From the NCBI GenBank assembly GCA_016218495.1, contig JACRDU010000162.1:1-64000 (forward strand): a stretch of 64,000 nt of DNA. The letters are read 5' to 3'. This DNA comes from Elusimicrobiota bacterium (GTDB lineage: Bacteria > Elusimicrobiota > Elusimicrobia > UBA1565). The translations under genes were made by a program, and so were the position numbers. This document shows positions 37,503 to 58,500 of the stretch, one piece after another. Within the stretch, counting starts at the first letter, position 1; each line of letters opens with the position of its first letter. The notes below the pieces were generated by a model that was not told the DNA's origin, did not search any database, and saw only the letters and a program-made list of their open reading frames with translations.

Positions 37503-40500
37503 AGGCCGCTCCCCTTGATGACGGCCATCTTGTGGTAGACGCTCTGGCCGTTCACCGTGTACTCCAGGATGTATACGCCCGAGGCCACCGGCCGGCCCGC
37601 GGCGTTCGTGCAGTCCCAGAAATCGTAGTTGTGCGTGCCGCCGTTGGCGGTCTTGTGGAACTCGTCGACCAGCTCGCCGGCGACGTTGTAGATGCGGAAG
37701 CGGTGGTCGAGCGGCGTGACGGCGCCGGGCGCGGCGTAGTGGATGACGGTGCCGACGCCGGTCAGCGCGCCCGCCGCGCAGGAGCCCTCGGCCACGTTGC
37801 AGTTGATGGTGCGGCTGCGGCAGTCGAACGGGTTCGGGAAGTTGAAGGCGATGGGCTTCTCGTCGCGGAAGGTGGCCGCCCCGACCAGCCCCGGCGCCCC
37901 GTTGAGGACGACGAAGGTGGAGAAGTGGTCGACCGAGACCGTGATGGTCTTGTTGATGGTGTCGATGCGCTTGTTGTTGGTCTCCTCGACCGGCGCCTGG
38001 CCGTTCGAGATGCTCCAGATCTTCAAAGCGGAGACGGAGGTCGTCGTCGCCAGCGAGGTGTCGTAGGGCAAGGTCAGGTCGACGGGCTTGGTGAGCTGGG
38101 CCCGGATGCCCAGCGGCAGGAAGACCTCGTAGAAGGAGCTGAACGGGTTGGCCTTGAAGGCGTTGTTGGTCGCGGTGGAAGCCGCCAGCGGGCCGTAGGC
38201 CGAGGCCTGCAGGGCCTGGATGCGGGCCGGCACGTAGCCGAGCTGGGCCATGGACAGCTGGGCCGCCTGGTTGGCGTCGAGCGAGCCCTGGACGCCGACC
38301 TGGACCTTGTTCTTGTCGCCCAGCTTGCCCTGGCAGTTATAGTTCGTGTCCCCGGCCGAGCAGCCCTCGAAGGAGCCGGGGGCGAAGTTCAGGCCGAACT
38401 TCTCCGAGTCGCCCTGGCCCTCGACGCGCTCGGAGGTCTGCAGGTTGACCTGGCCGCCCTGCGAGTTGTTGACCGGCTTGTTGGCCTGGGAGGTGATGAC
38501 GCGGTTCGAGCCGTTCTGCGACACCGCGGCGGCGAAGTCGAAGACCTTGAGCAGGGTGAAGTTCTCGCCCGTGGTCGGGTCGACGGTGGCCATGACGGCG
38601 TTGAGCTTGATGGAGAAGTTCTTCTCGGAGGCCGAGCCCGCCCGGTACACGACCGTGATTTCCTTGCGGTTGGACTCGATCTTCTTGTCCGAGCCGCCCA
38701 GCAGGGCGCCCTGGCCGTTCGGCGCGGTGTAGTTCGTCCCGTTGGAGGCGAAGCTCGAGACGCTGACGATGGTGTCGACGTCGTCGTCGGAGGCCAGGAG
38801 CTTGCGCAGCGGCTGCGAGCAGGCGATCTTGACCTGGAACTGCCCGTTGCCGAGCGCCTTCTCCCTGGAGTCCGCGTAGCAGTCCGGCGCCGTGCGGCTG
38901 TAGGTCAGGTTGACGGTCTTGGTCGTCGTGCTCTCGGCGGCCGAGAAGGATATCCCCTGGCCTTCCGCCGGGTAGACGACGTCGAGGTCGTCGCGGTGCG
39001 GCGGGAGGATGACCACGTTGTAGCTGACGCCCGGCTCGAAGCCGGAGATGGAGTAGCTGTTCACCGTGCGCGCCGTCTGGTCGATGGAGACCGAGCCGAT
39101 GATGAACTTGGAGAAGTCGCTGTTGGCGGCGGCCACGCCGCCGACCTCCTCGGTGCTGGGCGAGGTGCCGTTGGGCAGGAGGATGCGGCCCTGCAGCAGG
39201 CCGCCGCGGGCCAGGGTCAGGCCGGGGGCGCACAGGCCGACCACGGTGGTCGTCGAGATGCAGAAGCTGCCGGCATTGACGGTGACGGTGGCCGTGGCCA
39301 CCCCGAAGCCCAGGCTGACCGCGCGGATGGTGTAGCTGCCCACGGCGACGCCCGGGAAGCTGAAGCTGCCGTCGGAGAGAGTGTCCACCTCGGTGTCGCC
39401 CAGCGGGTTGTCCAGCGACACGACCCCGAGGGGCTGGAGGAAGACGGCCGCGGCAGGATAGCCCTGGTTCTCGCCGAACGGATAGGCGAGCGGGGACCCG
39501 TCGTCGGTCAGCACCTGGCCGGTCACGGACCCCAGCAGGGCGTTCAACTGGATGTTCAAAGGAGTGGTGGACACCGCCAGGCGGATGAGGTCGACCTGGG
39601 CGTAGCGTACGCCCGAAGCGGCCTGGTTGCCGTCGCGCGGCGCGACGGTGACGTCGTACTGCGGCGATACGAAGGTGGAGACCCAGAGGGTGAATTCGCC
39701 GTTGGCGTTGGAGAAGGTCTCCACCACCAGGGACACGTCGCCGTGCGAAGGCTTCGCCACCAGCTTGATGTTGCCCAGGGCCGTGGTGGTGGAGGCGGCG
39801 TCCACCAGAGTGCCCTTGATGGAGGTGCCCTGGTTCATCGACAGGGTACCGACGTCCTTGCGCTCGAAGGGCTGCAGGGACAGGCCGCCCAGCTCGACGG
39901 GCGAGTAGTTCTGCGACCCCTGGGCCAGGAAGGCCAGGTCCCACTTGTCCTGGAAGACCTTCAGGTCGTAGGGGGTGTCGGGGAAAAGCGGGCCGACCAG
40001 GAAGGTCCCGTCGGCGCGGATGGGGCGGGCGGAGACGCTGGAGGCCGCCTGGGCGAAGCCGCCCTCCACCCACGGGTTCGCCGTGGCGGTGATGCGCAGG
40101 TTCGGCGGCAGGACCTTGGCGTTGCGCTCGGTGAAGAGCTCGCCCGAGGCGGCGTCCTGGAGCTTGCCGGTCAGGTAGCCCGCCCGGCGCATGAGGACGT
40201 CCTGGCTGACCAGGTTCGCCGCCAGGCCGCCCGGTGACTGCGCCGAATCGGGGAAGCGGATGGGGCGGCCCAGGTACTTGGGCTCGGAGGCCGCGTCCTC
40301 GACGCTCAGGGTGTAGAATTCGCCGGCCGGCAGGCCTTCCAGGCGATAGCTGGTGGAGGCGGCCGTTACGCCCGCGGCCGAGTTGCCCAAGGCCACGGTG
40401 GTGGAGCGGACCACCTCGAGGCGGCGGTTGCGCAGGGTCAGACGCAGCGTCCGGAAGTCCTGGACACCGGCGGCCAGGGTCAGGACTCCGGTCACCGAGT

Positions 40501-43500
40501 AGCCGTCGGTGAGCGTGAAGGTGGAGGCCTGGACCGAGGCGGTGCCGACAGCCACGATCTGGGCCAGGCGCGGGACGACGACGGCGCAGGTGGTGCAGGC
40601 GGTGCCGGCGGCGTCCATGCGGCTGCGGATGTCGGCCGTCCGGACCAGGTAGACGCCGGGCGGCACGTTGCGGATGGTGTAGGTGCCGGCGCTGGTCAGA
40701 TAACCCACGCGGTCGGTGGCCGGGTTGAAGGAAGTGGAGGTGCCGACCCCGAACTCCTGGCGGATGGCGACGACGCGGGCCAGGGAGTTGGTGGAGGTCA
40801 GCACATCGCCGAGGTCCACAGTGGCCGGGTCGACGGGCACGTCCGCCCCCGTGCGGCCTTTCACGGGCAGGTGGCCGGCGTTCGCCACCAGCTTGGGATT
40901 GGTGTTGAAGTTCGTGTTGCTGATCTGGTTGAGGACGGCCCCGGAGATGGCGAAGGTCTGGTCGGTCAGGTCGACGAAGACCGTCGTCGTGGAGCCGTTG
41001 ACGATGGAGACGCGCTTCCTCACCGAGCGTCCCGTCGTCTTGTAGACGAAGGTCACATCGACGGTCTCGGTGTTGTTGCCGGTGAGGAGGAACGTCCCGG
41101 TGCTGGCCGTCGTGCTCCAGCCGTCGAGCGCGGTCGCGACCTCCTCGAAGCGCTTGCCGACCCTCTCGGGGCGGACGGCGGCGATGGTCTCGCCGAAAAG
41201 GGTCACGTTGCCGAAGTCGGTGTTCCCGTTGGGGATGAGGATGGTGCCGGAGACCACGCCGCTGGCCGCCTCGAAGCTGAAGGCCACATCGCCCTGGCCG
41301 GTGGTGGTCGACAGCGTCACCTCGCGCGAGAACCCGCCGGGCACCTCGAACTCCGTGTTGCCGCGGCTCTCGATGCCGGCGAAGACCTGGTACTTGATGC
41401 CGGGCTCCAGGCCGGTGAGCTGGACGGCCACCGAGGACAGCGTGGCGGACACCGGGATGTCGACGGAGCGGTAGGCCTGGTTCGGGGTGTTCGGCGCCCA
41501 GGCGTTGAGATGGATGCGCACGGAGGGCCCGCCGGGCTCGAGGGCCGGGAAGAGGCTGGTGTCCCCGGTCACCGACAGGGTGGCGGTCAGGACCGACGTG
41601 TTCGACGCCGGGAAGGAGGAGAAGTTGACCACCGTATCGACGCCGGAGAGGATGGTCGCCGAGTCGATGAAGACGGCCTTGTAGCCCTGGGTATTCGCCG
41701 TCAGGCGGTAGGAGCCGGGCTTGAGGCCGTCGACCCGGTAAGTGTCCGAGGCCACCCCGACGGGCAGTTCCACGCCGCCGAAACCGCCCTCGATGCGGGT
41801 CTCGGTGGAAATCGGCACGGCGCTGACCGAGACGAAGGCCCCGGTGGTATTGCTGCCGTTGGGCAAGGCCACGGTGCCGGTGAATGCTCCGCGGCGGCTG
41901 AAGACGGGCAAGGTCAGGCGCGTCTCGCCGGAGCCGGCCACGAACACGGACTGGCTCACGTCTTCGAAGCCCTCCAGGCGCGCCCGGACGGTGTAGGTGT
42001 CCGAGCCGACCTGGAAGCGCAGGACGGTCTTGGTGACGAAGGCGTTCACCGAGTTGTCGTACTGTCCGCCGTCGTCGAAGGTGGTGGTCCCGGCCTCGAG
42101 GCGCATCGGCCCGTTGCGGGAGAAGGTGCCGCTGGCGTTGGAAATCTGCAGCTCGCCCCACAGGGTGAAGGCCTGGGTGGAGGTGACCGGGATGTTGGGC
42201 ACGACGATCAAGGACGGCGCGCGGCTCATCAGGACGCGCACCGGGGCCGTGGAGGACTGGAAGGAGGCCGTGGAGAGCTCGACCTGGGAGTTGAACGGGG
42301 CCGTAGAGCGCACGGTGGAATCCGCGTTGACGGTGACCGAGGCGCGTCCCACCAAGTAGCCGTCCTTGGTGATGTTGAGGCGGTAGCCGCCGGCCGACAG
42401 GCCGTTGAGCGAGGCCGCGCCCTGGGCGTCGGTCAGCAGAGTACCGCCGCCGAACTGGCCGAAGTACTCGATGTTCACACCCGACAGCGGCAAGTTCGGC
42501 GTCACGCCGGAGTCGAAGACCTTGAGCGACAGGGCGGCGGACTGGACCGTGATGCGCAGGGAGTCGTTGCTGATGCCGCCCGCCTCGATGCGCACATAGT
42601 AGACGCCCTGGCCCACGCGCAGGCCGGCATAGTCGCGGCCGTCCCAGGCAATCTGTCCGCGGGCGGGCTGGCCGCTGCCGGAGAAGAAGGCCACCGGGTT
42701 CGGAGCGGCATCGGCCTTATAGGGGGTCGACGCGATGGACACCGTCCAGAACAGCGACTGGTCCGCGATATTGAAGTTGATGAAGGCCAGGTTGGGCGAG
42801 AGCGGGTTGCCGTCGGGCCGGATGGTGACCGTGGTCTGCGCCACCGACGGGTTGGGCTGAGTGGACACGCGCACGCCGGTCAGCGGGTCGACGGCCAGAG
42901 CGAAGACGCCGGCATAGCCCGTGGTGCCGGGAGCAAGGAGGTTGGAGGCGATTTCAACGGCCAGGTCGCCGGCCGTGGCCGCCCGGAGCCGGTAGGTGGC
43001 GCTGCTGGTCCCGGCGGCGAAGGTGACCACGGCGGTCGAGTCGAACACCCCGGCGATGCTGGAGGAGATCCTCAGCCCGGGCTCGTCGACGAAGGCGGCG
43101 GTCTGGTAGCTGAAGCGCTTGGCGCGCAGCACCACGTTGGCGACCGAGGCCACCGGGGTCCGGTTGCCGCACAGGTCGACGGCTTCGAGCAGCAGGCGTT
43201 GGGAGGTGGCGCCTTGGATGAGGCCGATGAACGGCTCGGCGGAGTGGACCGCCGCAGCGGCCCCCAGCGTCACATCGACGATAGGATTGCCCGAGAACAG
43301 CGGGGCCGGAGGCGCGGTCTGGGTGGAGGCCGAGCCGAAGAAGAACTGCGAGGGGCCCGTGAAGCAGGGCACGGCGGCGTTATAGAGGAACTGGACGGTC
43401 GAACCGGCCGCCAGCGGGGTACCGCCCACGCGGACGATGATGCCGGGCGCGCCGCCCGGGGCGGGCTGGGTGGAGACGGCCGGCCCGGCCGGGCTGAGGG

Positions 43501-46500
43501 TGACGGTCGTGAAGCCGGGGCTCATCGAACTGTCGGACTGCGGCGGAGTCCAGCCGAAGGGCAGGCCGAAGGCCACCGCGCCGCCCGCGCCGATGCCGCT
43601 CGGACCGACCACGAAGCTGCTGATGAAGACCTGGGCCGAGCCGGCCGCGGCCTGGCTGGAGTTGATGTTGACGAAGCCTTCGCCGGAGACCCCGTCCTGG
43701 CCCAGCTTGAAGCCCGGGTCGCGGATTTCGAAGTCCACGCCGTCGCGCGCCGCGTTGTCGGGCACGTAGATGGGCTCGGCGCCCTGGCCGTTGGGGCTGT
43801 AGACGCCCATCGGCTCATCGGGGTTCGGGATGAAGTCGTTGTTGACGTCGAGGAAGGCGCGCACGGCGTAGGGCTGGCCGCCCGGGACGCTCAGGTCGTA
43901 GGGGCCCACGCCGGTGGGGATGGAGCGCACCGCCAGCGGGCGGCCCTGGAAGGAGGAATCCGGCCAGAACTCGATGCGCAGCACGCCCTGGCGGGAGCCC
44001 GTGTAGCTGATGACGCCGGTGACGCGTCCTTCCAGCCCGCCGTAGGCGGCGGTGGAGGGGTTGATGACCAGCGACAAGCCGGCCACTTCCTGGCCCGCGC
44101 GCAGGAAGATGGGCGTCGCCGTAGGCGGAGCCGTGGAGAAGACGGCGAAGTCCTCGCCCTGGTCCGGGGAGTTGTTGAAGTTCACGTCGACGAAGGCCCC
44201 CATGTAGTAGCTGGTCTCGGAAGCCAGGTTCTGGAAGCTGAAGGCGCCGGGCCCGGGCAGGTCGCGTCCATCGACGAAGGCGCCTTCGGAGTCGAAGTTC
44301 TCCTGGTTGAAGAGGGCCATGACGATCTTGCCGCCCTGCGAGCCCGAGTAGATGACCTCGCCGGCGATGGAACCGGGCGTGCCGCCGGAGTTCTGCAGCG
44401 CGATCTTGTAGGCCCCGACGATGCCGGGGGCGTAGAAGGTGGCCGCCAGGGTGTAGTCCCCGGTCCCAGGCAGGGTCACCTGCAGCCGCGCGTCGCCCTG
44501 GTTGGCGCCGCCTTCGTCGGCCTGGGCCACCAGTTGGCCGTGCTCGTCATAGAGGTAGAGGTAGTTGTCCTCGGTCGCCTCCATCGTGGCGTCGAGGATC
44601 TGGCCGCGCGTGCCGTGGAAGGTCAGGAGCTGCTGCGACGAGCCCAGCGTCTCGCTCTCGCGGGAGTAGCAGGAGCCGCCGTTGATGGTGCCAGCGTTCT
44701 GGGCGCCCGGAGACAGGTCGAGCGACACCCGGTCGCAGACCGGCATCAGCAGACCGGTGACGGGGCCGAACACCGAGATACCCTGGGCGTCGGTCAGGCC
44801 GAAGGGCTCCGAGATGTCGGGCTGCTGGTTGCCGTTGCGGTCCAGGAAGCCGCGCAGCCAAGCCTGCCCGTCCGGGAGGCCTGAGAAGGTGAAGCTCTGG
44901 GGAGCAGCGCTGAACGGCAGGGTGGAAAGCCGGATCAGGTCGTCGGTGCTGCCGTCGTTGTCGGTGTCCTTGAAGAGGGCGAGGTAGAAGGTCCCGGTGG
45001 AGAAGCTCCCACGGTACTCGAGGGTCCCCGACAGGCTCGAGGAGCCCACCGGCCCGCCCTGGCCGGCGTCGCTGAGCGTGCCCACATGGCCGCCTGAGAA
45101 CGGGGCGTCGGCCGTGACCGTCAGCCCGCTCCCCCCCGCCACGAGCCCGAAGGCCTCGAACTGGGGCTCGTAGGCCTGGTTCCCGTTGGGGTCCTTGAAG
45201 GCGCGCAGATAATACGTGCCGTTGGGCAGGTTGTCGGCGGCGAAGGAGATGGCCCCGAACTGGGCTCCCGGGGTCGCGGTCCGGAACGGGGCGCCGACGA
45301 AGGTGTTGGTGGTGAAGGCCTGGACGACGATCGGGCCGGGCTGGCCGCCGCTGTAGGTCAGCACGCCCTCGATGCGCCCGACCGCGCCGCCCGACCCGCC
45401 CGCCCCGGCGTCGAAGACCACCAGGTCGATGCCGGCGACCTGCTGGCCCAGGTGGCCGAGGTTCACCAAGGAATCGCGGCGGAAGAAGGGCTCGCCGAAG
45501 TCCGAGCGCTGGTTGCCGTTGGAATCCACGAAGGCGTACATGCGGAACGGCCCGGTGGACAGGAAGGCCGCGGAGTAAGCGTAGGTCGACACGCCGGCCG
45601 TGCGCGGTATGGACACGGAACGGAAGCCTCCCTCGTGGCTGCCGCCCATGGTCTCGCGCTGGGCCTGGACGACCAACGGACCCTCCACGGTTCCCGAGTA
45701 CTGGACCGTGCCGGAGACGGCGCCGGTGGCCGGGTCCACCACGGTGAAGGCCACGCCCACCGAGCTCGACAGCGGCACGAAGGTCTGGGAGCCAGTGTCG
45801 CCGGACGGCTCGACCAAGGAGCCGCCCTCGTCGATCTGGCCGTTGGCGTTCTTGTCGATGAAGGCGCCGACGTAGTAGGTGGTGCCGCCCTGGATGCCCG
45901 AGCGGGAGAAGTAGCCCGTGGCGGACTGGGTCAGGTAGTACGGGATGTAGTTGAAGTTCTGGTCCGTGGCGAAGGCGACGAAGAGCGTGCCGGTGGAGGC
46001 GCCGTTATAGGTGACGGTGCCGAAGATGACCGAGGTGCCCGAGGTGCCGGTGCCGGGGTCGCGGACCAGCAGGTTCACCGTGCTGGTGGAATTCGCCTGG
46101 ACCGTCACCGGCGTGGAGGAGCCTTTGGCCTCCAGCGCGTCGCCGCGATTGTTGGCGTTCTGGTCCACGAAGGCCTGGACGATGTAGTTGGTGGCCGGGG
46201 CGATGAAGTCCAGCGCGTAGGACCCCGCGAACGGGATGGTGGTGAAGGCGACGACGTTGAGGTCGCTGCAGTCGCTGCAGGCGCGGCGGCCCACCTCGAT
46301 GCGGATGGTGCCGGCCAGGCTGCCCTGGCGCAGGATGGAGCCTTCGATGCGGCCCACGGACGGGTCGGCCAAAGCGATGTCCGCGCTGCCCACCGAGGCC
46401 ACGCCGCCCGTCACGGTGATGGCGGTGGGAGAGGACTCGCTGAAGCCGTAGGCGCCGGAGGGTTCGCCCGGGTCCTTGGCGAAGTTGAAGTTCTCGTCGC

Positions 46501-49500
46501 GGAAGGCGCGCAGATAGAAGGCGCCGTCCTTGAGGTTCCCGATGGTGAAGGAGCCGGTCCCGAACTGGTCCTGGACATGGAACGGGAAGGCGTCGGCGTC
46601 CGGCCGGTCGAAGAGCTGCAGGCGGATGGGGCCGGTCTTCGAGCCCGAGTAGGAGGTCACGCCGGCGATCTGGCCCGTGAACCCGCCGTAGACGTTCATC
46701 AGCAGGTCGTAGAAGCCGGTCTGGCCCGAGAAGAAGGAGGTCGGCTCAACGACATAGATGCCCGGCTCGTTGGCGAGGAAGGTCACATGGGGGTTGCCCG
46801 GGGTGTTGTCCCGCGCCACCACCTGGCCGGACGGGCCCAGCACGATGAGCTCTGAGTCGAAGCCCGGGGTGACCAGGCTGATGTCGACGCTGGAGCCCGT
46901 GCCGATGGAGCCGGCGGCGCCGCCGCCCGCCCGGAAGGTGTAGAGGTCGGTGTAGAAGCCGGGGCCCTTGTCGAGAGCGGGGCAGTCGCCGGCCTGGAAC
47001 TGCCCCGTGGCATCGAGCCCAAGGCGGAGCGCCGCGCGGTCGCAGATGGTCACGGGGCGGTTCGCCACCGTGTTGCCGTTGATGATGTTGAGCGGGAACG
47101 GACCGACGATGCCGCCGTGCGTGCCCGAGGGCTCGGTGGCCGCGTCCTGAGAGTTGTCCGCATTCACGTCGCGGAAGCCGCGCAGGTAGTAGACGCCGTC
47201 GTTGAGGCCGGTGAAGCTGAAGTCGCTCAAGGTGCTCTCGGCCAGGAACGGGTCCTCGCGGCGCGGGCTGGTGGAGAGACGGACGCGATAGGCGCCCTGG
47301 CTCGTGGCGGTGAAGGTGCTGATGGAGCCCGAGACCGTACCGCCCACGGCGGGGCGCACGGCCAGGGCGCCCGAGGCGCCGCCGACGTTGCCGCCCCAGT
47401 CGATGGCCAGGACGCGGTAGATGTTGTCCACCCCGCCGATGGGGCTCAGGTCGGTGAAGGCGGGGGCGGCCACGATGCCGGACACGCCGAAGACCGTCTG
47501 GTTGCTCAGAGTCGCGAAATTGGCGGTCCCGGCGGTGGTGCGCTGGACCCGGTAGCCGGCCAGGTCGGCAAGAGGAGTTCCGTTCTGGTTCAGGGTCGGG
47601 GCGTTCCAGGTCAGCGCGACCCGTCCCAGCGAGAGGGTGGCCAGCAGGCCGGCCGGCGCCGCCGGCGTGACGGTGTCGGCGACGACGGAGAAATTCTGCC
47701 CGATGACGGGCGAGGCGACCACGGCCACGGCACCGCCCAAGGTCCCCTGGTCCTCGCCCGCTTCGCGCGTGCCGTTGGCGTTGACGTCGACGAAGGCGCG
47801 CACGAAGTAGCTGCCGGCGCCCAGCGCCAGGTAGTAGGGCTGCTGGGACGACTTCGGCATGCGGACCGAGGCGGCTTGGCCGGCGAACGGGGCGGAACTG
47901 GTGAAGGCCTGGATATAGACGTCCCCGGTCTGGGTCCCTGTGTACGAGACCAGGCCGGCGATGGAGGGGTCGACGGAGGGCAAGGTCACGACGGACTGGA
48001 CGGAGCTGGGCGCCGAGAAGCCGCCGTTGGGGCTCTGCGCCTTGACCTGGAAGTAATAGGTGGTGGCCGGGGCCAAGCCGATGGCGGCCCTGGTCAGGGC
48101 CGGGCTGTATTGGACAGCCTGGAACGGCCCGGCCGCCACGGTGGCCGATTCGAGCTGGTAGTAGGCCAGGGAGCCGTTCCCGTTGGCGGTCCAATCCACG
48201 GTGAAGCTGGACACTCCCACGTTGGAGAAGGTGGGCGCGCCGGGGGTGACGGCGGCGGCGGCCGGGATGCCGAACACGGCGCGGATGCCGCCGGCGCCCT
48301 GGTTGTTGACCGCCTGGATGCCGCGGATGGCCGAGGTGGACGCCGCGGAGGCGGCCTCGATGTAGGTGGAGGCCGAGCCCGGCAGGGCCACGACCACCGC
48401 GCTCGAAGCGTCGAGCAGCAGGTAGCCCGTGGCGCCCTGGACCTGGGACCACTGGAAGGTCAGTTGGGTGTCGGAGAAGGCCCCCAAGCCGAACGAGCCC
48501 ACCGCGGCCGGGGGCTGCGGCGTGCCGACGCGCATCTCGGCGTTGGCGAAGCCGCCGGACGGGACGGACAGGAATGCGTCGTTGACGGTGAACGGCTCGT
48601 TGGCCTCGAATTGGCCGTTGAAGTTGAGGTCGGCGAAGCCCACCAGGCGGTAGTCGGTGGCGGGCTTGAGCAGGCCCATGAAGAAGTCGAAGCTGCCTCC
48701 GGCCGGCAGGCTGGGGACGAAACGGAAGTCGCGGGCCTCCGGCGCGAAGGAAGCCGTTCCCGGCACCCCGTGACCGGCCACGATGATGAAGCGCTTGTTG
48801 TTGACGGCCTGGTCGAAGAACACCCGGCCCTGGATGCCGCCCATGTCTCCGAGGGTCACCGTGCCGATGTTGGCGCCGGCCGCCGAGCTGACGGCGATGG
48901 GTGAGAGCAGGCTGGACAGCTGCGACATGACGATCTGGCTGGGGGCCAGGTTGTAGCCGCCCAACGGCTCGGGACCGTCGGGCTGGTCGTTGTAGTTGCC
49001 GTCCCGGAAGGCGACGAGGTAGTAGTTCGCGGGGATGGGGAGCCCCGTGACGGTGAACGGCCCGGCCGTGGGGGTCTTGAGCCCGCCGACGAAGTTCACC
49101 TCATGCTCGAAGTCGGGCGAGGTGGTCACCCCGATGTTGAACTGGCCGAAGTCCATGAGGCCCGAGTAGGCGAGAGAGCCAGAGATCTGGCCGAGCCCGC
49201 TGTAGACGGTGAAGCTGACGGCCGCCGTAGAGCCGATGGGCGCCTGGAACATAGGCAGCTTCCCGCTCTGCTGGTTGGGGTCGGCCTGGGCGTAAGCCTC
49301 CACCGTGAAGAACCCGCCGAAGGGGACATGGAGGACGTACGGATAGCTGCCGGCCCCGGCCAATGAGACGACGGCCGTGCTGACGGTCGGGTTGCAGCCG
49401 AAGGGGGCGTACTGGCAGTCCTGCTTCAGGTTCACTATGAGGTTGGAACCGGACAGGGCGCCGAGGTAGTTGATGGACCCGGCCACGGCGGAGGTGGTGG

Positions 49501-52500
49501 AGCCCGTCACCGTCAGCCCCACCCGCATCTCGCCGTAGTTGTTGAAGTAGTCGCCTGGGACGTCGTTGGCCGAGAGGTGGATGCCCAGCCCGCCGTTCTG
49601 GCCGGCCGTGATGGTGGTGCCGGTGCCGACGGCCACCCAGCCGCCGTTGGCGCTGACGAGCAGGGCTCCGGTGCGCGCCCCGCGCAGCAGGTTCGGCGCC
49701 GACTCCGTGTTGGAGAGGCCTTCCGGCCCGGTGTTCTGTCCCTTGAAGTTCCAGGAGCCAGCCGCCTGGACGACGACCTGCTGGCCCGGAGCCACCGACA
49801 GGCAGGTGTAGTAGCCGCCGCCGCCGAACGGGTCGCCCTCGGTTCCGGCGAACACCGCCCAGCCGATGGTGGCCGAGCTGACGATGGGATAGATGGGGTC
49901 GGCGTCCATGCTGCCGGCGCCCATCAGGAAGTAGTTGCTGGCGGCCACCGTCAGGCTGAGCGGCGCCAGGCCCTGGTGGCCGGACTGCAGGCCCTGCGGC
50001 TGGAAGACCAGGAAGGCCGTCCGCGGCTGGCCGGGGTCGAGGAACAGGGTCTGGTAGAAGTTGACCACCGCCGAGGAGACGGGCGGGGTGACATAGGCGA
50101 AGCCGACGGGGTTGTCGCAGGGCCCCGTGCCGCCGCAGTATTGGTCCAACTGGCCGTTGCCGTCGTTGTCGATCCAGAAGGCCAGCTGATAAGACTGCAT
50201 CGGCCCGCCCTCGATGTCGACCTGCAGGCCGTTCATGGAGGCCTGGCTGGAGGCCCCGGTCAGCGTCAGCTTCGCCATCGTCTGGGGGCCGTTGTCGCCG
50301 ATGAGGCCGCCGTGCGGGATGACGACAGACGCCCCGACCGTGCCTCCGGGGGGCGCCGTACCGCCCCCGGCCGAGATCGAGACGGTGCCGGGGTAGGTCC
50401 CGGACTGCGGCAAGGTGATGACGGCCGAGCTGCCGGACGCCTCGAAGGAATCCAGCTCGCGGTTGTTGTTTACGTCGACCCAGCCGATCAGGACCAGGCT
50501 GGTGGCCGGCACGGAGAGGTTGAAGAAGCCCGGGCCCTGGGAGTAGCTGAGGGCTTCGACGGCGTTCGTCGAGACGCCGTCGGCCAGGAGGCTGACGGCC
50601 CCGACCAGCATCGGGCCGAACTGCTGGGAGCCGTTCTGGAAGTCGACGTTGACCTCGCCCCAGTCGCGCACCGTGATGTCCTTGCCCGACAGGTTGTCGC
50701 TGGGGGCCACGAAGACGGGGTCGGAGCGGAGGAAGCCCTTGTTCGCGGGGCCGAAGGCGCCGCGGGTCTCGACTCCGTTGGGGTAGAAGTCGTTGTTCGC
50801 GTCGTGCCAGGCGAAGAGGTAATAGGTGGCCGGCGCGTCGAGGTTGTTGAGGTTGTAGGTCCCGCTCAACCCCGACACGGACGCGGTGAACTGGAGGCCG
50901 CCTTGCGGGGCGAAGGTATCGAAGAAAGGCTGGGTGGAGGCGCGGACCCGCGTGAAGCCGGCGCCGGGCCCGGAGACCGCCTCGTTGATGATGCTGCCGG
51001 CGATGTTGCCCGCGCCGCCGCCGTCCGGATTCCAGAACAGGACGTTGTTCGGGTCGTTCTCCTTGGGGGTGCCGCGGTTCGGGCCCATCGAATCCAGCAT
51101 CGTGACGTTCGAACCGACCGGAACGCCCGCGGCGTTTACGTTGGTCGTGTACTGCCCGTAGAACTGCAAGCCGCGGAAGGTCATCGCCTGGGACGAGGAG
51201 CGCGCCAGGGTGAAGGCCGCCGTCGCGTTCTGCTCCCACTCGTCGAAGCCGACGTTGTGGAAGGCCAGCAGGTTCGCCGCCGAGGTGATGGTCACGTTGG
51301 AGCGTTCCATGCGCAGGAACCCGTTCCCCGTGACGTTTACCGTGCCCTCCACGACGGTGAAGGGCACCGTGTTGAAGCCGGCCGGCATGACCTGGGAGAA
51401 GGCGCTCTGGTCCGGCGCGTACACGAAGCGGCCGCCGCCCGAGACCACGGCGCCCGCCTGCCCGACGAAGAGGCGGCCGTTGTCGCGGCCGAGGTCGAAT
51501 GTGGCGCCGTTGGTGACGAAGAGGCCGCCCTGGACGCGGAACTCCTTGTTCCGCCCCATGTCCAGCGTCCCGCCCGCTATGACGGCGTGGCTGGAGACCT
51601 GGATGGCGTTGAAGTCGTCGGGGCCGTTCGAGCCGCGCAGGCGCACCGTGCCCGTATAGCCGGGGGTCATCGTCCAGGCGCCGACGTTGAGCTGGAAGAG
51701 GTTCCAGTCGCAGTCGTTGGCCCCGTTGAACACGATGCTCTCGCCGGGCTGGGGGGGCTGGCCGGAGGCCCAGTTGTTGGGGATGTCCGCGCCCGCGCCG
51801 AAGGCGCTGCCACCCACCCAGGTCTGGGTGACGGAAGAGGGCACGATGTGGAAGTCGACCGCCAGCCCGTTCGAGTTGTCCTGGTAGTCGGTGTCGTTCA
51901 TCGCCAGGGCCAGGGGGCCCGACTGGGTCGACACGAAGGTCTTGGAGGAGCCCACCAAGAACCAGTTCGACCCGCCGATGCGCCCGACGAGCGCGCCGAT
52001 GGGCAGCGCCCCGCCGAGGCCGCCGGTGGACCCGAGGCCCTCAGGGCCGGACACGCCCGACGCTCCGGTGTTCCAGAAGCCGGAGGCGTTGATCTCCACG
52101 GTCTGTCCGACGTTGATGAAGAGGCCGGTGTCGAAGCCGCCGGAGGGCGAGGCGCCCGCCTGAGGGACCGGATAGCCCATGTCGAACGGGCGGGCGGCTA
52201 GGGAGAACTGGCTGACGGCCAGGTCCGAGGCGGCGGGCAACGGCTGCCCGGCGGCCATGGAGCCGTTAGGGAAGGTGAACGCCGAGGCCGACTCGACGCC
52301 GACCCCAGCCGACTTGCCGGCCGGCACCCCGAAGATGCCCAGGCCGACGAAATAGGAAGCCGTGGAGGCCGTCACCGTCTGGGTGCTCCAGAAGACCACG
52401 TTCGCGGTAGGAGGGACTCCGGCGGAGAAGAACTCGTCGCCGATGAATTCGTCCAGTCCGACGGTGAGATTGCCGTCGCTGTTGGAATCACGCCACACCC

Positions 52501-55500
52501 GGGCCACGACCGCCTGCGCCGGCGCGTCACCGAGGAGGCTCACGCGCAGGGCGCTGAGCTGGGCGTTGCCCCCCTCGCTCCACAGCCCGAGCTTGAGGAA
52601 GGCGGCCTCGCCGTTGGAGGAGATGTTCTGAGGGGCGACGGACACGGCCGCCAGATGCACCTGGCCGGGCGTGCCGGCGGCGATGGTGATGTTCTGGACG
52701 AAGGTCGTGTTGGGCGACACCCCGGAGAGGTCGATGGGGCCGACCGTGGCGAAGTCCTCGCCGGAATCCTTCGCGGCGTTCCAGTTCGAATCCACGAAGG
52801 CCTGCAGGTACAGGTTCGAGATGGTGGCGACGAAGACCGTGTAGGTGCTCAGGGAGTTGTCGGCCGAGCGCGGGTACTCGATGCGGGTCCCGGCCGAAGC
52901 GGGGTCGCCGTACCAGTGCTGGACGCGCAGGGTGCCGGTCTGGACGCTGTTGTTCGTGACGGTGCCGGACACCTGGACCATGTCGAAGAGGTGGAGGTCC
53001 AGCCCCGTCACGGTCTGGTCCGGGAGGACGACGACCGGGGTCAGCGGCCCGTAGAACGAAGCGGAGTGCCGGGCGAACGGGTCGAAATTGTCGGGCTCCC
53101 CGCTCGAGTTGCGGTCCCAGAGGGCCTGGACATAGTAGGTGTTCGGGGCGATGAGCCCCGACGCGGAGAACGCGCCGAGGGCGCCCGTGGAAACCATCAG
53201 GGTGGCCGGCGCGCTGTTGTCGATGTCGAAGGCGCTGGTCGAGAAGACGATTTTGTAGTCCGGAGCGCCGGTCAGGCCGTAGTCGTAGCCCAGCGTCCCT
53301 TCCACCGACCCGTAGGAGGCCGGCGGGGTGGGCGGCACGGTCTGCACGGTGACCAGCTGGTTGTTGCGGAAGTCCGCGCCCCAGAGCTGGCCGCCGACGA
53401 AGGCCAGGCCGGAGAGCATCTTGCCGCCGTCCACCCACTGGGGCGTCGTGTCGATGAAGGGAGAGGGCAGGGTCCCCAGGTTCTCGAAGCGCCAAACCGA
53501 CCCGCTGCCGGGGGCGGCATCGGTCGTCACTTCCGAGACGAACATGTTTCCGTCGAAGTCGAAGGCGAAGGCGAACGGGGCGGGGACCGCCGTGATGGTG
53601 ACGTCCGGCGTCCCGGAGATGCTGCCCGCCACCTCGGGATAGCGGCGGATTTCGCCCAGGGCCGGCACCGAGACCCAGAGGTTGTTGCCGCTGTCGAAGC
53701 CCAGGCCGGCCGCGCCGGGCAGCTGGGCGAAGCTGGTGAACTGAGAGGCGCCGCCCGCCGAATAGGTGGGGGCTCCCAGGGAAGAAGCGCCGTCGCGCAG
53801 GTAGTTGACGACGCTGGCCCCCCCGCCGGTCCGGTTGGCCACCCACAGGTCGCCGGTGTCCGACCGGAAGGCCGTGGCCCAGACGTCGCTGAGCATGGTC
53901 GAGAGGGAGCTGGAGGTCGTGGTCGAGACCGTGCCGGGGCCGGCCTCGCCGGCGTAGCGCACCAGTTGGTTCACCGGGCCGCCGAAGGCCGTGGAGACGG
54001 CCACCCAGAGGTTCCCTCCGGTGTCCACGGAAAGCGCACGCGGGTTGCGCACGCCCTGCGGGAAGCCCAGGACCTGCTGGGCCGGCGCGGTGCGGCTCAC
54101 GGGCGGGGCGGGGGAGTCGAAGCGTTTAAGGGAGTCCTCGGCCGCGTAGGAGGTCCAGAGCCGGCCCGCCATGTCGGCCACGCCCCAGTAGCCGTCGCCC
54201 TGCGGCGCGCCGCCGGTCCCGGAGCCCGCGTCGGAGAGGTTCTTGACGAAGGTGACGGCGTCGTAGCCGTTGGCTCCGTTGAAGCCCGTGCCGGTGACGA
54301 AGACGTTAGAGGAGTCGAGCACGGCCAGCCCGATGGCCTGGTCGAAGCCCGCGAAGCCGGCGTCGAAGCTGGTCGAGGCCTTCTCGATGAGGTCGGGGTC
54401 GAAGACCTTCAGCGCATAGTCGCCGCCGTCGGCGGAGTAGCTGGTGATGGCCAAGTAGAAGAGACCGTCGGGTCCGGACTTCAGGCCCGCGCCGGGAGCG
54501 GACTGAACGCTCAAGGTCGACGACGCCCCGCTGTAGTTCAGGTTCGGGTCGAACTTGCGCAGACGATAGTTGTAACCGGTGGCGTCATAGGACCCGGCCA
54601 GCAGCACGCCGTTGGAGAAGGCCAGGTCCATCTGGCCGACGACGGCCGGGAAGAGGGCCGAAACGTCGGCTTGGGCCAACGCGTTGAGGTTCTGGTCGTA
54701 CTTGACCAGCTTGACGGTGTTCGAGCCGTCGCTGACGCTGACGAAGACCTCGCCGCCGAAGGGGGTGATGACGATGTTGTTGCCGTTCACGTGCTGGGTG
54801 GAGATGGGGAAGGTGGCGCGGGCCACTTCGTTCAGGTTCGTGTCGAGCTTGACGACCTTGGCGCCCTGGCTGATGCTTCCGCCGTCGTTCACCGTGTAGA
54901 CGAACCCGGCGCGCGAGGCCGCGCGGGTGATGTTGCCGATGTTGTTCTGGTTGAAGGTGACGGTCTGCAGGCGCTCCAGGCTCGCGCCGAGCTTCACCAT
55001 GCGGCGCAAACCGGCCTCGTCCTTCTCCGCCACGAAGACGGAGCCGTTCTCGAAGGCCAATGCGTCGCCGGAGAGGCTGCCCAGCAAGGTCGTCGAGGCG
55101 ACGAAGGCGCCGGTCAGATCGTACTTGACCACCGTGACCTGGTCGGGAGAAGCACCGGCGCTGGCGTTGGAGGTCGAATGGATGGTGGCGTATACGAAAC
55201 CGCCGGTGGAATCGATCACCAGGCTGTGCCCGATGTCGGCCCCGTTGACGTCGTTGTTGATCCGCGAACCCGGGCTGAAGGTGCCGGCGAAGCTGACGCT
55301 GACGGTGCTGACCACCGCCGGCGGGGCCGCCGAGAGGGACTGGAGCTTCACGACCCCGTCGAAATGGCCGGTGTTGTAGCCGGCCCCCGCGGCGTAGACC
55401 CCGGTGGGACCGCTGGTGAGCAGGGCCATGAACGCGTCGGCGCCGGAGAAGCCGGCGTCGGCCAGGACCGTGTCGAAGGGGACGAGGTTGGAATCGAAGC

Positions 55501-58500
55501 GCTTGAGCAGGAAGTTCCCGCCGTCCGCGGTCGCCGAGGTCAGCCCGACCGTGACGATGTTGGCCGAGTCGGCCGAGATGGCGCCCATGCCCTGGCCGCC
55601 CACTACGGGGAAGGTCGAAGACACGCCGTCATAGGCCAGGGTGTTGGAGAAGCGCCGGACATAGGCCTCGCCGGCCCCCTCGGAGCGCGCGAAGAGGAAC
55701 AGCTTGCCCGAGCCGTAGGCGATGCGGGCCGAGTCGGGATCGCCGACCAAAGAGGAGATGTCCAGGGTGCCGACCACCTGCAGCCCGGTGTCGAACTTGA
55801 CCAGTCCGCTGGGGCTCATGTGCATCGAGCTGACCGCTACGAAGAGGTTGCCGACGGCGTCGACGGCGGCCCACTTGGCGTGCGTCTGCCAGGAGCCGGC
55901 GACGGTATAGGTGGTCCGGGAGATCTCGGCCAGGCTCGGGGAGTACTTGACGATGATGGTTGGATACTCGCCGCCCAGGAAGAGCGGCCCGCCGTCGACC
56001 AACGCGTAGACGTTCCCGCCGCGGGCTACGGCCATCGTCCCGCCGGCGCCCACCCCGAGGGTGGCGGAGGACTGGAAGACCAGGTTCGCGTCGTAGCGGT
56101 GGATGCCGGTGTCGATGGTGGGCTCGCCGCGGTTGGCGCCGACATAGAGCGAGCCGCCGTCAAAGGCGATGGTGTGGCTGGTGGTCCCCAGGGGGTACAT
56201 CGTGGCTGAAGAGAGCACGACGCCGGCAGAGTTCATCTTAAGGATGACAGCCTCGCCCGCCGGGGGCCACACCGCGCCGGTGGTCGAATAGGCGATGGCG
56301 TAGAGGTCGCCGGAGACGGGGTCGGCGGTCAGGGCCACGACGGCTTCGTTGCGGTTGTCGGTGGTGTTGACGAACTTGCCGGACGGCAGGGCGCCGGAAT
56401 ATGTGAAGACGGGAGCTGGCGGTGCCGCAGGACCGCCTGCCCCCAAGGGCAGGAGGAGGCGGGTGGTTCGGATGTCGTTGTTGGCCCCGTTCGAGGACTG
56501 TCCGGTCAGGAAGAGCGCACCGGTCTGTCCCACGACGAAGGCGAAGGCGGTATCGACGTTGCCGGCCCCGTCGGCCGTGGCCGAGGAGATCATGGCCAGG
56601 GTGGCGGGGTTGATCCGCATCGCCAGGTAATCCGCCGGCGAACCGGCCGAACCGGCCAAGAGCAGGTCGCCGGTGGCGTCGAAGGCCAGGTCGCTGGCGA
56701 TTTCAAAGCCCGCGCCTCCCAAGGCCGCCGTGCTGACGAGGGTCGGAGTGGGGACCGAGTAGCGCGCCAGGATGATGTCGCCGCCGTTGGCAACAGTGGA
56801 CCCGGTCACATAGAGTTCGGTGCCGGACGGCGCAAGAGCGATGCCCCCATCCTGTTGCCCAGCGGGGAGGGTGTCCTCAGTGATGGCGGAATTGAGGTTC
56901 TCATCAACCTGTGCCACGAGGACTCTGGCTGGGGTGTCATTAATCCGGCCGGTGGTATAGATGTTCCCAGTCACAGGGTCGGCCGCGACCCCGTTGGCAA
57001 AATAATCAAGCGAGGAGGCCCAACCCGTGAATCCGACGTTCGCCAACCCGGTGGAAATACGGAACAAGTCGATTTCGAAGAAGGACGCGGCAAAGTGATG
57101 CCCGGCGAAATAGAGGTAGCCGTTGGGGTGAGAGGTGACCGCTTCGAAGTAGTCCAGAGTCCCGCTGTCCATCGTGGTGGAGGAAATCATCGCCAGGGTG
57201 ATGGAGGACACGCGCATCAGCAGGAAGTCGCTGTTGCCCGAGGAATTGATATCCACCGAGCCGCCGACGAAGAGGTCGCCGTTGGCATGCTGGGCCACGG
57301 CACGGAAGCTGTCGTTATAGGGCGACAGGCCGTAAGTGGCCGACGACACCAGGTTCCCGCCCACATCATAATGGAGGATCAGGGCGTCATAGGAGCCCGC
57401 CGGGCTCGAGGTATGGCCGACGACGAACACATCGCCCGTGTTGGTGTCCTTGACGATGTCGTAGGCTCGGTCCTCGTCAGCGCCGGAGGCCAAGGCGCCG
57501 CCCGGCACGGGGAAGGTGCCGGAGAAGGACATCGGAGCCGGCGCGCCGCCGCCGGAGGCCAGGGTGCGCAGCATCACCACGCCGTCGTCGTGGGTCGAGT
57601 TGCGGCCCGTCCCGCCCAGCGCCACGCCGTCGCCCGAGTAGAGGGCGACGCCGGTCAAGCTGTCGGCCCCGCCGAACCCGGCGTCGAAGACCCCGGAGGA
57701 GAGCTGGTTGAAGCTATGGTCGAACCGGAAGGCGAGGAAGCTCCCCCCGTCGGCCGTGCTCGATGTCAACCCGACGACGAGCGAGGTGGCGTCGGCGGTG
57801 ATGGAGGTCTCCGGCGAGGCGCCGGGGACATAGATGTTCGTGCTGACGCCCAGGGAGGCCAAAGTCGAGGAATCGTAGCGATGGAGGATGGCATGGGCCG
57901 GCGCGGCCGAGTCGCCGGAGGCGACGAAGACGCTGCCGCCGCCGTAGGCCAAGCGCGGCTGACTGCCCAGAGTGGTGGTCAGGCTCACGGAGGAGAGTTG
58001 GACCAGGCTCGAGTCGAAGCGGTAGAGGGCGCCCTGGATGGGAGGCGTCACGGTCATAGACGTGACGGCGACATAGATGTCGCCCGGCACGTTAGCGACG
58101 ATGTCGTCGCCGTTGAGGTGGTCGGAGCCGAACGGGGCCAAGGTCGAACGCGCCACCTCGTTGAGGGTGACGGCGTCGTACTTGATGACCTTCGCGCCCT
58201 TATCGCTCAAGCCGCCGTCGTTGATGGTATACAGGAAGCCGTTCTTTGCCACGGCGCGGGTGATGTTGCCGACCGCCGCGGCGTCGACGCTCACCGAGGA
58301 GAGCCGCACCAGGTTCGCGTCGTAGCGCGCGATGCGCCGGGTCGTGGGCTCCTCCTTCTCGGAGACGAAGACGAAACCGTTCTCCCAGGCCAGGGCGTCG
58401 CCGCTCCGGTCGCCCTGGAGCGCGGCGGAGGCCAGCACTACGCCGGACGGGGAAATCTTCAGGAGGAAGCTGTCGCCGGACGCGGCGTACCACTGGGGCG

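Follow-up and report, generated by a model that had tools for sequence, protein, structure and literature searches.

The B domains of SdrD are CnaB-type repeats with a helix-less, EF-hand-like Ca site right after a beta strand, and the B repeats of SdrD and UafA form a rod projecting the binding region of the protein (PMC13174682, PMC3775735). Sdr proteins are stabilised by Ca (PMC3775735), and removal of Ca from SdrD merely loosens the loops, the rod shape being retained (PMC13174682). The ligand spacing 1-3-5-9-12 of the EF-hand loop and its ligand rules were set out by Rigden et al. 2011 (PMC3123361), together with Dx[DN]xDG loops in non-EF-hand contexts, in which the loop is a local structural calcium site within an unrelated fold. 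DUF2141 (PF09912) comprises uncharacterised, single-domain bacterial secreted proteins of ca. 140 aa, whose function is not addressed in the titles and abstracts of the papers found to mention the family.

The repeats described here belong to an 8,185-aa protein encoded on the minus strand at 37499..62056 of the window (the whole 64-kb stretch of DNA analysed), with a GTG start and a GC3 of 0.93. This surface protein, judged extracellular by its architecture, comes from an Elusimicrobia-like bacterium of groundwater and has orthologues of 38 to 69% identity in Elusimicrobia MAGs. A signal-peptide-like N-terminus is followed by ca. 2,900 aa of beta-propeller-like repeats, the region with DUF2141-like repeats (aa 2913-6114), ca. 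2,000 aa of CarboxypepD_reg/Ig-like domains, and finally, at 37502..37735 (aa ~8108-8185), a C-terminal domain similar to FlgD_ig and to the T9SS type A sorting domain. According to the reading favoured here, to which a probability of roughly 0.6 is assigned, the repeat region is an array of DUF2141-like beta sandwiches with structural Ca2+ bound in their loops, and serves as the extended middle section of the giant surface protein.

An iterated HMM found 17 copies of the repeat in this region, all on the minus strand; the other ORFs of the 64-kb window lack the repeat. The repeat unit is ca. 110 aa long (range 103-120 aa), not ca. 75 aa as proposed in the initial annotation, and the D1-to-D1 spacing is 103-117 aa within an uninterrupted run of copies. 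The acidic loop, previously taken for the end of the repeat, occupies positions 66-77, with ca. 30 further residues of the same domain after it. Instead of one continuous array, the copies form six blocks, between which lie fn3, PPC-like, and Ig-like plus lectin-like PA-IL-like modules, the PA-IL-like ones scoring under the Pfam threshold.

Copy 1 (52979..53320, aa 2913-3026; 82 bits) bears the variant loop DRNSSGEPDNFD at 53081-53116, and copy 2 (52649..52981, aa 3026-3136) the loop DSNWNAAKDSGE at 52757-52792. They are followed by copy 3 (50660..51019, aa 3680-3799) with DANNDFYPNGVE at 50768-50803 and copy 4 (50372..50659, aa 3800-3895) with DVNNNRELDSFE at 50441-50476. Copy 5 (49205..49501, aa 4186-4284) is truncated, covering HMM positions 1-74, and its loop is lost or degenerate (QADPNQQSGK). 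The loops DGNYNDQPDGPE (48968-49003), DLNFNGQFEANE (48596-48631), and DVNANGTREAGE (47753-47788) are located in copies 6 (48851..49201, aa 4286-4402), 7 (48512..48850, aa 4403-4515), and 8 (47645..47977, aa 4694-4804), respectively, while copy 9 (47036..47350, aa 4903-5007) has a 13-residue variant, DVNADNSQDAATE, at 47132-47170. Copy 10 (46361..46684, aa 5125-5232) carries DENFNFAKDPGE at 46463-46498, copy 11 (46055..46363, aa 5232-5334) DQNANNRGDALE at 46130-46165, copy 12 (45731..46048, aa 5337-5442) the 16-residue variant DKNANGQIDEGGSLVE at 45809-45856, and copy 13 (45407..45733, aa 5442-5550) DSNGNQRSDFGE at 45491-45526. Another 13-residue variant, DPNGNQAYEPQFE (45155-45193), is found in copy 14 (45065..45388, aa 5557-5664). 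Copy 15 (44729..45049, aa 5670-5776) has the loop DRNGNQQPDISE at 44807-44842; a second motif, DTDNDGSTDD, is present in this copy at aa 5697. The array ends with copy 16 (44054..44383, aa 5892-6001), bearing DVNFNNSPDQGE at 44153-44188, and copy 17 (43715..44038, aa 6007-6114), bearing DVNNDFIPNPDE at 43814-43849.

The ORF contains 12 matches to the strict pattern D.N.[ND]...[DEN]..E, at aa 3089-6081 (43814-52792 of the window), whereas 0.006 are expected by chance from shuffling the protein, with no more than one match in any of 2,000 shuffles; all 12 motifs share one column of the repeated domain. With the near-variants of copies 1, 9, 12, and 14, a loop is borne by 16 of the 17 copies, so the earlier count of fourteen or more EF-hand-like loops holds, and the examples quoted with it are all present in the protein. 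In the window loops, oxygen-donor residues occupy positions 1, 3, 5, 9, and 12 (D, N, N/D, D/E/N, and E) and are followed by Pro-x-Gly. Absence of the motif from orthologues, considered in the initial annotation, is not observed: among 77 copies from five orthologous proteins, D1 is kept in 70/77, N3 in 65/76, N/D5 in 67/76, D/E/N9 in 59/73, and E12 in 66/72, and positions 2, 4, 6, 7, 8, 10, and 11 vary freely. The metagenome search suggested there gave the same picture, as all five ligand positions are retained in 73% of 858 copies from 150 diverse proteins. All these conservation figures are for HMM-selected copies, a choice biased toward motif-bearing ones. Column entropies over these 858 copies are 0.46, 3.47, 1.57, 3.16, 1.58, 3.14, 3.89, 3.69, 1.94, 3.69, 3.22, and 0.93 for loop positions 1 to 12. 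Loss of ligand positions is clustered and not independent, with an excess of copies lacking three or more. Judged by this conservation, positions 1, 3, 5, 9, and 12 are under selection.

The initial annotation could name no family for the repeat. Profile comparisons place it as a distant relative of DUF2141, a divergent, array-forming branch of that superfamily. The Pfam DUF2141 model scores 66.5 bits summed over the repeat region (cut-off 24.4); no single copy reaches the cut-off, copy 14 being the top single stretch. When the repeat was compared in hhalign with 120 bona fide DUF2141 proteins, the diverse alignment (A2) gave 97.3% probability (E 2.4e-11, 74 aligned columns) and the window copies alone 96.5% (E 7.4e-10); moreover, two relatives of the repeat are labelled 'DUF2141 family' in IMG. 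Loop residues D1, N3, N5, and D9 align, profile to profile, with the DUF2141 signature HDENGNGKLD, and both families share the strand-loop order Y-x-x-x-[AF]-x-D-x-N-x-N-x-x-x-D and, further along, a Glu and then Gly. This Glu occupies position 12 in the repeat and 18 in DUF2141, since the loop of the repeat is six residues shorter. The two also differ in that the post-loop signature EGYGFSNDA/GPP of DUF2141 is not found in the repeat, whose C-terminal third is unalignable to that family, and in that the repeats form tandem arrays in multi-thousand-residue proteins, whereas DUF2141 proteins are single-domain. The families named for comparison in the initial annotation (SdrD_B, Calx-beta, cadherin, DUF11, and thrombospondin type 3) gave no match in a Pfam search with the protein and its copies.

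A single domain (copy 16) is predicted by AlphaFold to be an all-beta sandwich (pLDDT 96.4, pTM 0.86), and a tandem of two copies is modelled with pLDDT 93.7 and pTM 0.73. The loop of copy 16 lies between strands 57-66 and 79-81, and the 10-residue blocks over loop residues 67-78 average pLDDT 98 and 96. In the model, the fold class is that of a transthyretin/CnaB-type beta sandwich with the loop placed after the fifth strand. CnaB-type pilin/adhesin domains are among the fold matches of the repeat; no solved structure is close to it, and none of the repeat family or of DUF2141 was found for comparison. CarboxypepD_reg/transthyretin-like domains, including those of NOMO and rhamnogalacturonan lyase domain II, differ from the repeat in lacking the acidic loop, and their Pfam models are not matched by the repeat copies.

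From the conservation of five positions, with the intervening ones left free, calcium binding may be inferred with good support, and the 16 conserved acidic loops probably hold one calcium ion each. Every loop would wrap a single Ca2+, or a divalent cation like it, in the manner of an EF-hand but with no helices at its flanks. The ligands would be the side chains of residues 1, 3, and 5 and the main-chain carbonyl of 7, together with Glu12 in bidentate fashion and residue 9, either directly or via a water molecule. The role of the ion would be structural, namely to order the 12-residue loop and stabilise the individual domains after the protein has left the cell. The loops apparently resemble those of the Dx[DN]xDG type (PMC3123361) as local structural calcium sites within an unrelated fold, sharing with them Asp1, Asn or Asp at positions 3 and 5, a position 7 open to any residue, and a later acidic ligand. 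They differ in that position 5 is mostly Asn and Gly6 is mostly absent: 4 of the 16 loops have it in the window and 43% of the copies in the family, and Phe, Gln, Ala, or Arg often takes its place. Gly6 is a hallmark of both Dx[DN]xDG and EF-hand loops, and its scarcity counts against the calcium reading, as do the frequent Pro at position 8 and the deviation of all the loops from the PROSITE EF-hand pattern. The likeness to SdrD B repeats seen in the initial annotation is borne out, both being repeated beta-sandwich domains of a cell-surface protein, of CnaB type and with a helix-less EF-hand-like site in SdrD (PMC13174682, PMC3775735). The sites are placed differently, in the A-B loop at the domain start in SdrD and about two thirds along the domain here, and nothing in the repeat visibly corresponds to the two additional, low-affinity Ca sites of SdrD B.

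It is possible, if unlikely, that the loop is metal-free and that Asp, Asn, and Glu are retained for Asx turns and for a network of hydrogen bonds capping the beta sandwich at its end. The predominance of Asn over Asp at positions 3 (70% vs 17% in the family) and 5 (62% vs 26%) is also compatible with such a hydrogen-bonded loop, and the rarity of Gly6, the frequent Pro in place of a hydrophobic residue at position 8, and the high pLDDT (96-98) of the loop modelled without an ion speak for it as well. However, SdrD loops with Asn at both positions, as in the B1 sequence, bind Ca, and AlphaFold often predicts holo-like conformations without ligands. The ligand positions vanish jointly and not one by one; DENGNGKLD of DUF2141, where position 6 is Gly and position 8 hydrophobic, comes close to the canonical Dx[DN]x[DN]G motif; and with its exact 1-3-5-9-12 spacing and a position 12 that is almost always acidic (Glu in 85%, Asp in 10%), the loop has the ligand pattern of EF-hands (PMC3123361). 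Rather doubtful is a functional instead of a structural site, in which partly solvent-exposed Ca2+ would bridge to polysaccharide or acidic surface groups and the array would act as a multivalent Ca-dependent adhesin. The adhesin-type architecture and the PA-IL-like modules among the repeats agree with this, and ligand contact has been proposed for the solvent-exposed Ca sites of SdrD B domains (PMC13174682). On the other hand, no conserved second shell pointing to a common ligand is seen at the variable positions of the loop, the same acidic loop is retained in thousands of proteins of differing architecture, and a site with full 1-3-5-7-9-12 coordination could hardly accommodate a ligand as well.

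It is highly improbable that the conserved Asp, Asn, and Glu make isopeptide or ester cross-links within the molecule, as in CnaB-type pilin and adhesin domains, since no Lys is conserved (Lys makes up 0.9% of the region and dominates no column of the family profile), the conserved Thr/Gln/His set for ester bonds is absent, and the conserved residues, instead of lying on the first and the last strand, sit together in a single loop. There is hardly any probability that the loops are genuine helix-loop-helix EF-hand calcium sensors. The canonical EF-hand geometry ascribed to them earlier stands as far as the ligand spacing is concerned (PMC3123361), and this spacing in a 12-residue loop is what such sensors would share with the repeat. 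The loop, however, has beta strands to either side in the confident AlphaFold model and so lacks the helix-loop-helix form of an EF-hand. Searched up to E = 1, the repeat copies gave no hit to an EF-hand family of Pfam, and all the loops deviate from the PROSITE EF-hand pattern, the mismatches falling at hydrophobic positions 8 and 13. Moreover, the protein is extracellular by architecture.

Under the favoured reading of loop-bound structural Ca2+, the array together with the fn3, PPC-like, and lectin-like modules would form the extended middle of the giant protein, whether secreted or attached to the cell surface, and hold the N-terminal propeller-like region away from the cell. Since its conserved acidic loop probably holds calcium, the repeat appears to be a bacterial stalk repeat of an ordinary type from an unstudied family. 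The term Ca-rigidified stalk, suggested in the initial annotation, may overstate the effect of the ion, as the SdrD rod persists without Ca (PMC13174682). The anchoring differs as well, SdrD having an LPXTG motif and the window protein a T9SS-like C-terminal domain, which scores 34.5 bits with FlgD_ig (cut-off 27) and 21.3 bits with TIGR04183 (below the cut-off of 23), and also matches PorZ/PorU C-termini. This end would be handled by the product of the neighbouring downstream gene (36540..37502, minus strand; 4 nt overlap with the giant ORF), a PorV/UPF0164-like outer-membrane barrel scoring 34 bits with PorV (cut-off 27). The gene pairing is conserved in related loci: in two of them, L001 and L004, the orthologue is immediately followed by a gene of 74% and 47% identity, respectively.

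The giant open reading frame (37499..62056, minus strand) encodes a protein of 8,185 amino acids which contains all the copies of the repeat discussed here, and the residue numbers (aa) refer to this protein. The G+C content of the window is approximately 70%, and the GC3 value of the giant ORF, 0.93, is the same as that of the neighbouring housekeeping genes, coding for enolase, Lgt, phosphoglucomutase, and others. A 990-aa query from the giant protein retrieves orthologue-like genes of 69%, 68%, 60%, and 38% identity, located in four loci of three metagenome-assembled genomes, two of which carry the label Elusimicrobia, groundwater. The GC3 value typical of housekeeping genes and the presence of orthologue-like genes in other genomes indicate therefore that the giant gene is real and chromosomal.

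The motif D-x-N-x-[ND]-x3-[DEN]-x2-E, described in the initial annotation as an EF-hand-like loop embedded in a repeat of ~75 aa, occurs 12 times in the giant protein, always within aa 3089–6081, against a chance expectation of 0.006 and a maximum of one in 2,000 shuffles of the protein. A repeat HMM, seeded with the sequence around each motif and then refined by iteration over the giant protein, delimits 17 copies of one domain (aa 2913–6114, 40–107 bits each), in which the motif occupies a constant column, profile positions 66–77 of 109. Near-variant loops, with Ser at position 5 and Asp at position 12 or with 1–4 additional residues ahead of the Glu, are present in four more copies, and the loop is lost in one of the 17, a truncated one. 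The repeat unit comprises 103–120 aa, and the distance between the Asp residues at loop position 1 (D1) is 103–117 aa in an uninterrupted run; both fit a period of ~110 aa, and the 75-aa period is rejected. The motif observation was thus real but mis-measured. The 17 copies are split into six blocks by other modules, and the repeat domain is absent from every other ORF in the window, including the second giant ORF (22584–33203). Each repeat ends in an invariant Asp at profile column 109, a highly informative column (240 of 240 aligned family copies; examples are aa 5231, 5333, 5441, and 5549), which might serve as a cap for the following domain or as an additional ligand where two domains meet. 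Copy 15 bears a second motif, DTDNDGSTDD, of the canonical DxDxDG type (aa 5697–5706, window 44964–44993, minus strand), situated in the loop following strand 2 and unique to this copy among the repeats.

The predicted fold class of the repeat is clear. The AlphaFold2 model of copy 16 (aa 5892–6001), built with a 94-sequence alignment, has a pLDDT of 96.4 and a pTM of 0.86 and comprises eight beta strands and zero helices. The loop (residues 67–78 of 110) lies after the fifth strand, between strands 57–66 and 79–81 as assigned by DSSP on the model, and the 10-residue blocks covering it have mean pLDDT values of 98 and 96. The tandem model of copies 16 and 17 (the latter aa 6007–6114) has a pLDDT of 93.7 and a pTM of 0.73, with a less confident linker. 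Foldseek with the repeat model gave no match at E ≤ 0.001, and sequence searches of the PDB with the alignment of the window copies, the diverse repeat alignment, and a DUF2141 protein gave nothing significant, with a single marginal match to NOMO; no experimental structure was found for the repeat family or for DUF2141.

The ligands of Ca2+ in the canonical EF-hand loop are the side chains of residues 1, 3, and 5, the residue 7 carbonyl, residue 9 (through a water molecule), and Glu12, and this local loop motif is found in many unrelated folds (PMC3123361). The giant protein has the 1-3-5-9-12 spacing of oxygen ligands in 12 strict and 4 near loops. The motif is present in the orthologues, too: among 77 copies taken from five proteins, the window protein plus four orthologues, and selected, like all the copies counted for loop conservation, with the HMM, D1 is found in 70/77, N3 in 65/76, N/D5 in 67/76, D/E/N9 in 59/73, and E12 in 66/72, with positions 2, 4, 6, 7, 8, 10, and 11 highly variable. 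In ~900 copies from 150 diverse representatives the respective frequencies are 95% for D1, 87% for N/D at position 3, 95% for N/D/S at position 5, 83% for D/N/E at position 9, and 95% for E/D at position 12, followed by Pro (60%) and then Gly (65%). The column entropy in this set is low at positions 1, 3, 5, 9, and 12 and high in between, so the putative ligand positions are not the variable ones. Both this and the presence of the motif in the orthologues, the two refutation checks named in the initial annotation, favour a metal site. All five are kept in 73% of the family copies, and copies with two or fewer number 41, against ~4 expected under independent loss, an excess suggesting that the putative metal site is kept or lost as one unit.

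The loop resembles the EF-hand in its ligand spacing, as initially proposed, but it is not a canonical EF-hand. The model has strands in place of the helices flanking a canonical EF-hand loop, and single copies have no match to the EF-hand Pfam families at E up to 1. The PROSITE pattern PS00018, which requires Gly or a polar residue at position 6 and hydrophobic residues at 8 and 13, has no match in the giant protein; the mismatches fall mainly on these two hydrophobic positions and, in several loops, additionally on 4 or 6. A canonical helix-loop-helix EF-hand is rejected on these three grounds. Compared with the Dx[DN]xDG class of calcium loops, whose linear motif is D-x-[DN]-x-D-G with Asn tolerated at the third D, the window loops have D1 and N3 in 16/16, N/D5 in 15/16, and Gly6 in only 4/16; among 885 family copies, 43% have Gly6. 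Cross-linking by isopeptide or ester chemistry is rejected as well, there being no conserved Lys and no conserved His/Gln set. A calcium-binding loop is the best-supported reading that we can infer, with a probability of about 0.6.

Membership in the SdrD_B, Calx-beta, cadherin, DUF11, and thrombospondin type 3 (TSP3) families was considered and rejected for want of Pfam matches. SdrD_B (PF17210) matches neither the repeat region at E 0.01 nor single copies at E 1, and gives sub-threshold matches in two relatives only (~22 bits vs a cut-off of 29.7); the remaining four have no match in aa 2900–6150 at E up to 0.01 or in single copies at E up to 1. In staphylococcal SdrD and UafA, the B repeats have a CnaB-type fold in which a strand is immediately followed by a high-affinity Ca site that is EF-hand-like but helix-less, and the repeats jointly form a rod whose loops are loosened by EDTA without its collapse (PMC13174682); the melting temperature of SdrE rises with Ca (PMC3775735). 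In SdrD the EF-hand-like site lies in the A–B loop, right after the first strand (PMC13174682), while the loop of the window repeats follows the fifth. By analogy, the SdrD/UafA B repeats would be the closest functional counterpart of the window repeats, which are alike in outline without being members of that family.

The repeat was initially held to match no nameable family; profile comparison places it as a distant relative of DUF2141. The Pfam DUF2141 model (PF09912) scores 66.5 bits over aa 2900–6150 (cut-off 24.4, E 2.5e-18), a value summed over weak stretches only, and of the copies scanned singly 4/17 match, weakly, with the best E of 0.0012. As a reference, 120 proteins with precomputed PF09912 annotation were used; they were retrieved with a DUF2141-like query, and it is their annotation that makes them the reference. 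Aligned to them with hhalign, the diverse repeat alignment gives a probability of 97.3% (E 2.4e-11) over 74 columns, of the ~110 in the repeat, and the alignment of the window copies alone 96.5% (E 7.4e-10). In the profile–profile alignment D1, N3, N5, and D9 of the loop fall on the DUF2141 signature f-H-D-e-N-G-N-G-k-L-D. The extended signature, fHDeNGNGkLD-x-N-x2-G-x-PtEgYGFSnDA...GPP, is retained in the window repeats in its D, N, N, and D, while the YGFSN/GPP segment is missing; DUF2141 has six more residues ahead of the conserved P-t-E-g-Y-G-F-S, which are lacking in the window repeats, with Glu at position 12. The alignment, together with the six-residue gap ahead of the Glu, identifies the repeat, at the level of sequence, as a relative of DUF2141 that has diverged and whose loop is shorter. 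The two differ also in architecture: DUF2141 proteins are single-domain secreted proteins of about 135–150 aa (124–183 aa among the retrieved PF09912-annotated members), while here 17 copies are found in 8,185 aa. IMG names two of the repeat relatives "DUF2141 family", and other relatives, from Elusimicrobiota, are named by NCBI only "carboxypeptidase regulatory-like". The repeat is not covered by any NCBIfam model, and literature searches on DUF2141 and on giant proteins in Elusimicrobia found nothing specific.

When 1.84 billion cluster representatives were searched exhaustively with the profile, 6,205 proteins scored at E ≤ 0.001, of which 1,089 reached E ≤ 1e-10; the counts rest on this search, a word-indexed homologue search with the profile having returned one protein only. 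Among the 6,205 there are about twenty giants of 4,900–7,600 aa with 13–23 copies and many small relatives with 2–6 copies each, several of which terminate in T9SS sorting domains (Por_Secre_tail, CHU_C, FlgD_ig). Counted as clusters at 50% identity, the short-loop branch has 6,205 members or more; for classical DUF2141 the number of clusters retrieved, at 90% identity, exceeds 2,300. The branch is missed by current Pfam thresholds at the single-domain level, though abundant in metagenomes. There is an even chance that the DUF2141 superfamily, the short-loop array branch and classical DUF2141 included, is an unrecognised and large class of transthyretin-like modules that bind calcium. DUF2141 and the much larger array branch would then have one structural Ca2+ per domain, bound by a helix-less EF-hand-type loop, which would add another structural context for this loop. 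In uncultured phyla, Elusimicrobiota among them, giant surface proteins, some bearing T9SS-type sorting domains, would commonly be built with modules of the short-loop branch, which adds an entry to the parts list of such proteins of uncultured groundwater bacteria. No new principle is involved, as calcium-stabilised beta-sandwich repeats of bacterial surface proteins are well known, e.g., SdrD B, cadherin-like, BIg, Calx-beta, and TSP3; the novelty lies in proposing a function for a domain family that is abundant and uncharacterised.

A signal-peptide-like segment at the N-terminus of the giant protein is followed by ~2,900 aa of degenerate propeller-like repeats (aa 1–2900, window 53300–62056, minus strand), constituting the N-terminal third. 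They have no Pfam match, and their sole match is a weak one to the NCBIfam SBBP (beta-propeller repeat) lipoprotein model (26.5 bits). This uncharacterised third probably acts as the functional "head" of the giant protein. An fn3 domain (a significant Pfam match), a pair of PPC-like domains, and a pair of Ig-like plus PA-IL-like modules stand between the blocks of copies. With ~115 aa each, the PPC (pre-peptidase C-terminal)-like domains lie between copies 9 and 10 (window 46685–47035, minus strand) and between copies 15 and 16 (44384–44728, minus strand) and score 19–20 bits, under the cut-off of 25.9. The two Ig-like plus PA-IL-like inserts (window 51020–52648, aa 3137–3679, and window 49502–50371, aa 3896–4185, both on the minus strand) are paralogous, with 28% identity over 283 aa (E 3e-10). 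In each, the Ig-like domain bears its own Dx[DN]xDG-type motif, DSNSDGNLTVGLDE at aa 3190 and DNDGNGQLDQ at aa 3963, respectively, and is followed by the PA-IL (LecA lectin)-like domain, scoring 19–21.5 bits, just under the Pfam threshold of 22.5. C-terminally to the repeat region there are CarboxypepD_reg/Ig-like domains.

The C-terminal domain of the giant protein matches FlgD_ig (34.5 bits, cut-off 27) and scores 21.3 bits with TIGR04183 (Por_Secre_tail), below the cut-off of 23. The giant gene overlaps by 4 nt the next gene, which encodes a PorV/UPF0164-like outer-membrane barrel (36540–37502, minus strand; 34 bits, cut-off 27), and a similar pairing is found for the second giant ORF (22584–33203, 3,539 aa), directly followed by another such gene (21643–22692, minus strand). 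Both giants terminate in a FlgD_ig/T9SS-sorting-like domain, and the pairing of the giant gene with the PorV-like gene is kept in two related loci, L001 (74% identity) and L004 (47%). The sorting-like C-terminus and the conserved pairing suggest putative export or anchoring via a T9SS-like route, and the two genes look like a cargo-plus-shuttle module; of T9SS components, only the PorV-like neighbours were seen in the window, and a quick literature search gave no specific description of type IX secretion in Elusimicrobia or the phylum. Between and beside the two giant genes there are genes for two FecR-domain proteins and a small cyclic-nucleotide-binding protein (34889–36385, minus; 20279–21646, plus; 33207–33665, minus), which are possible regulators of the locus.
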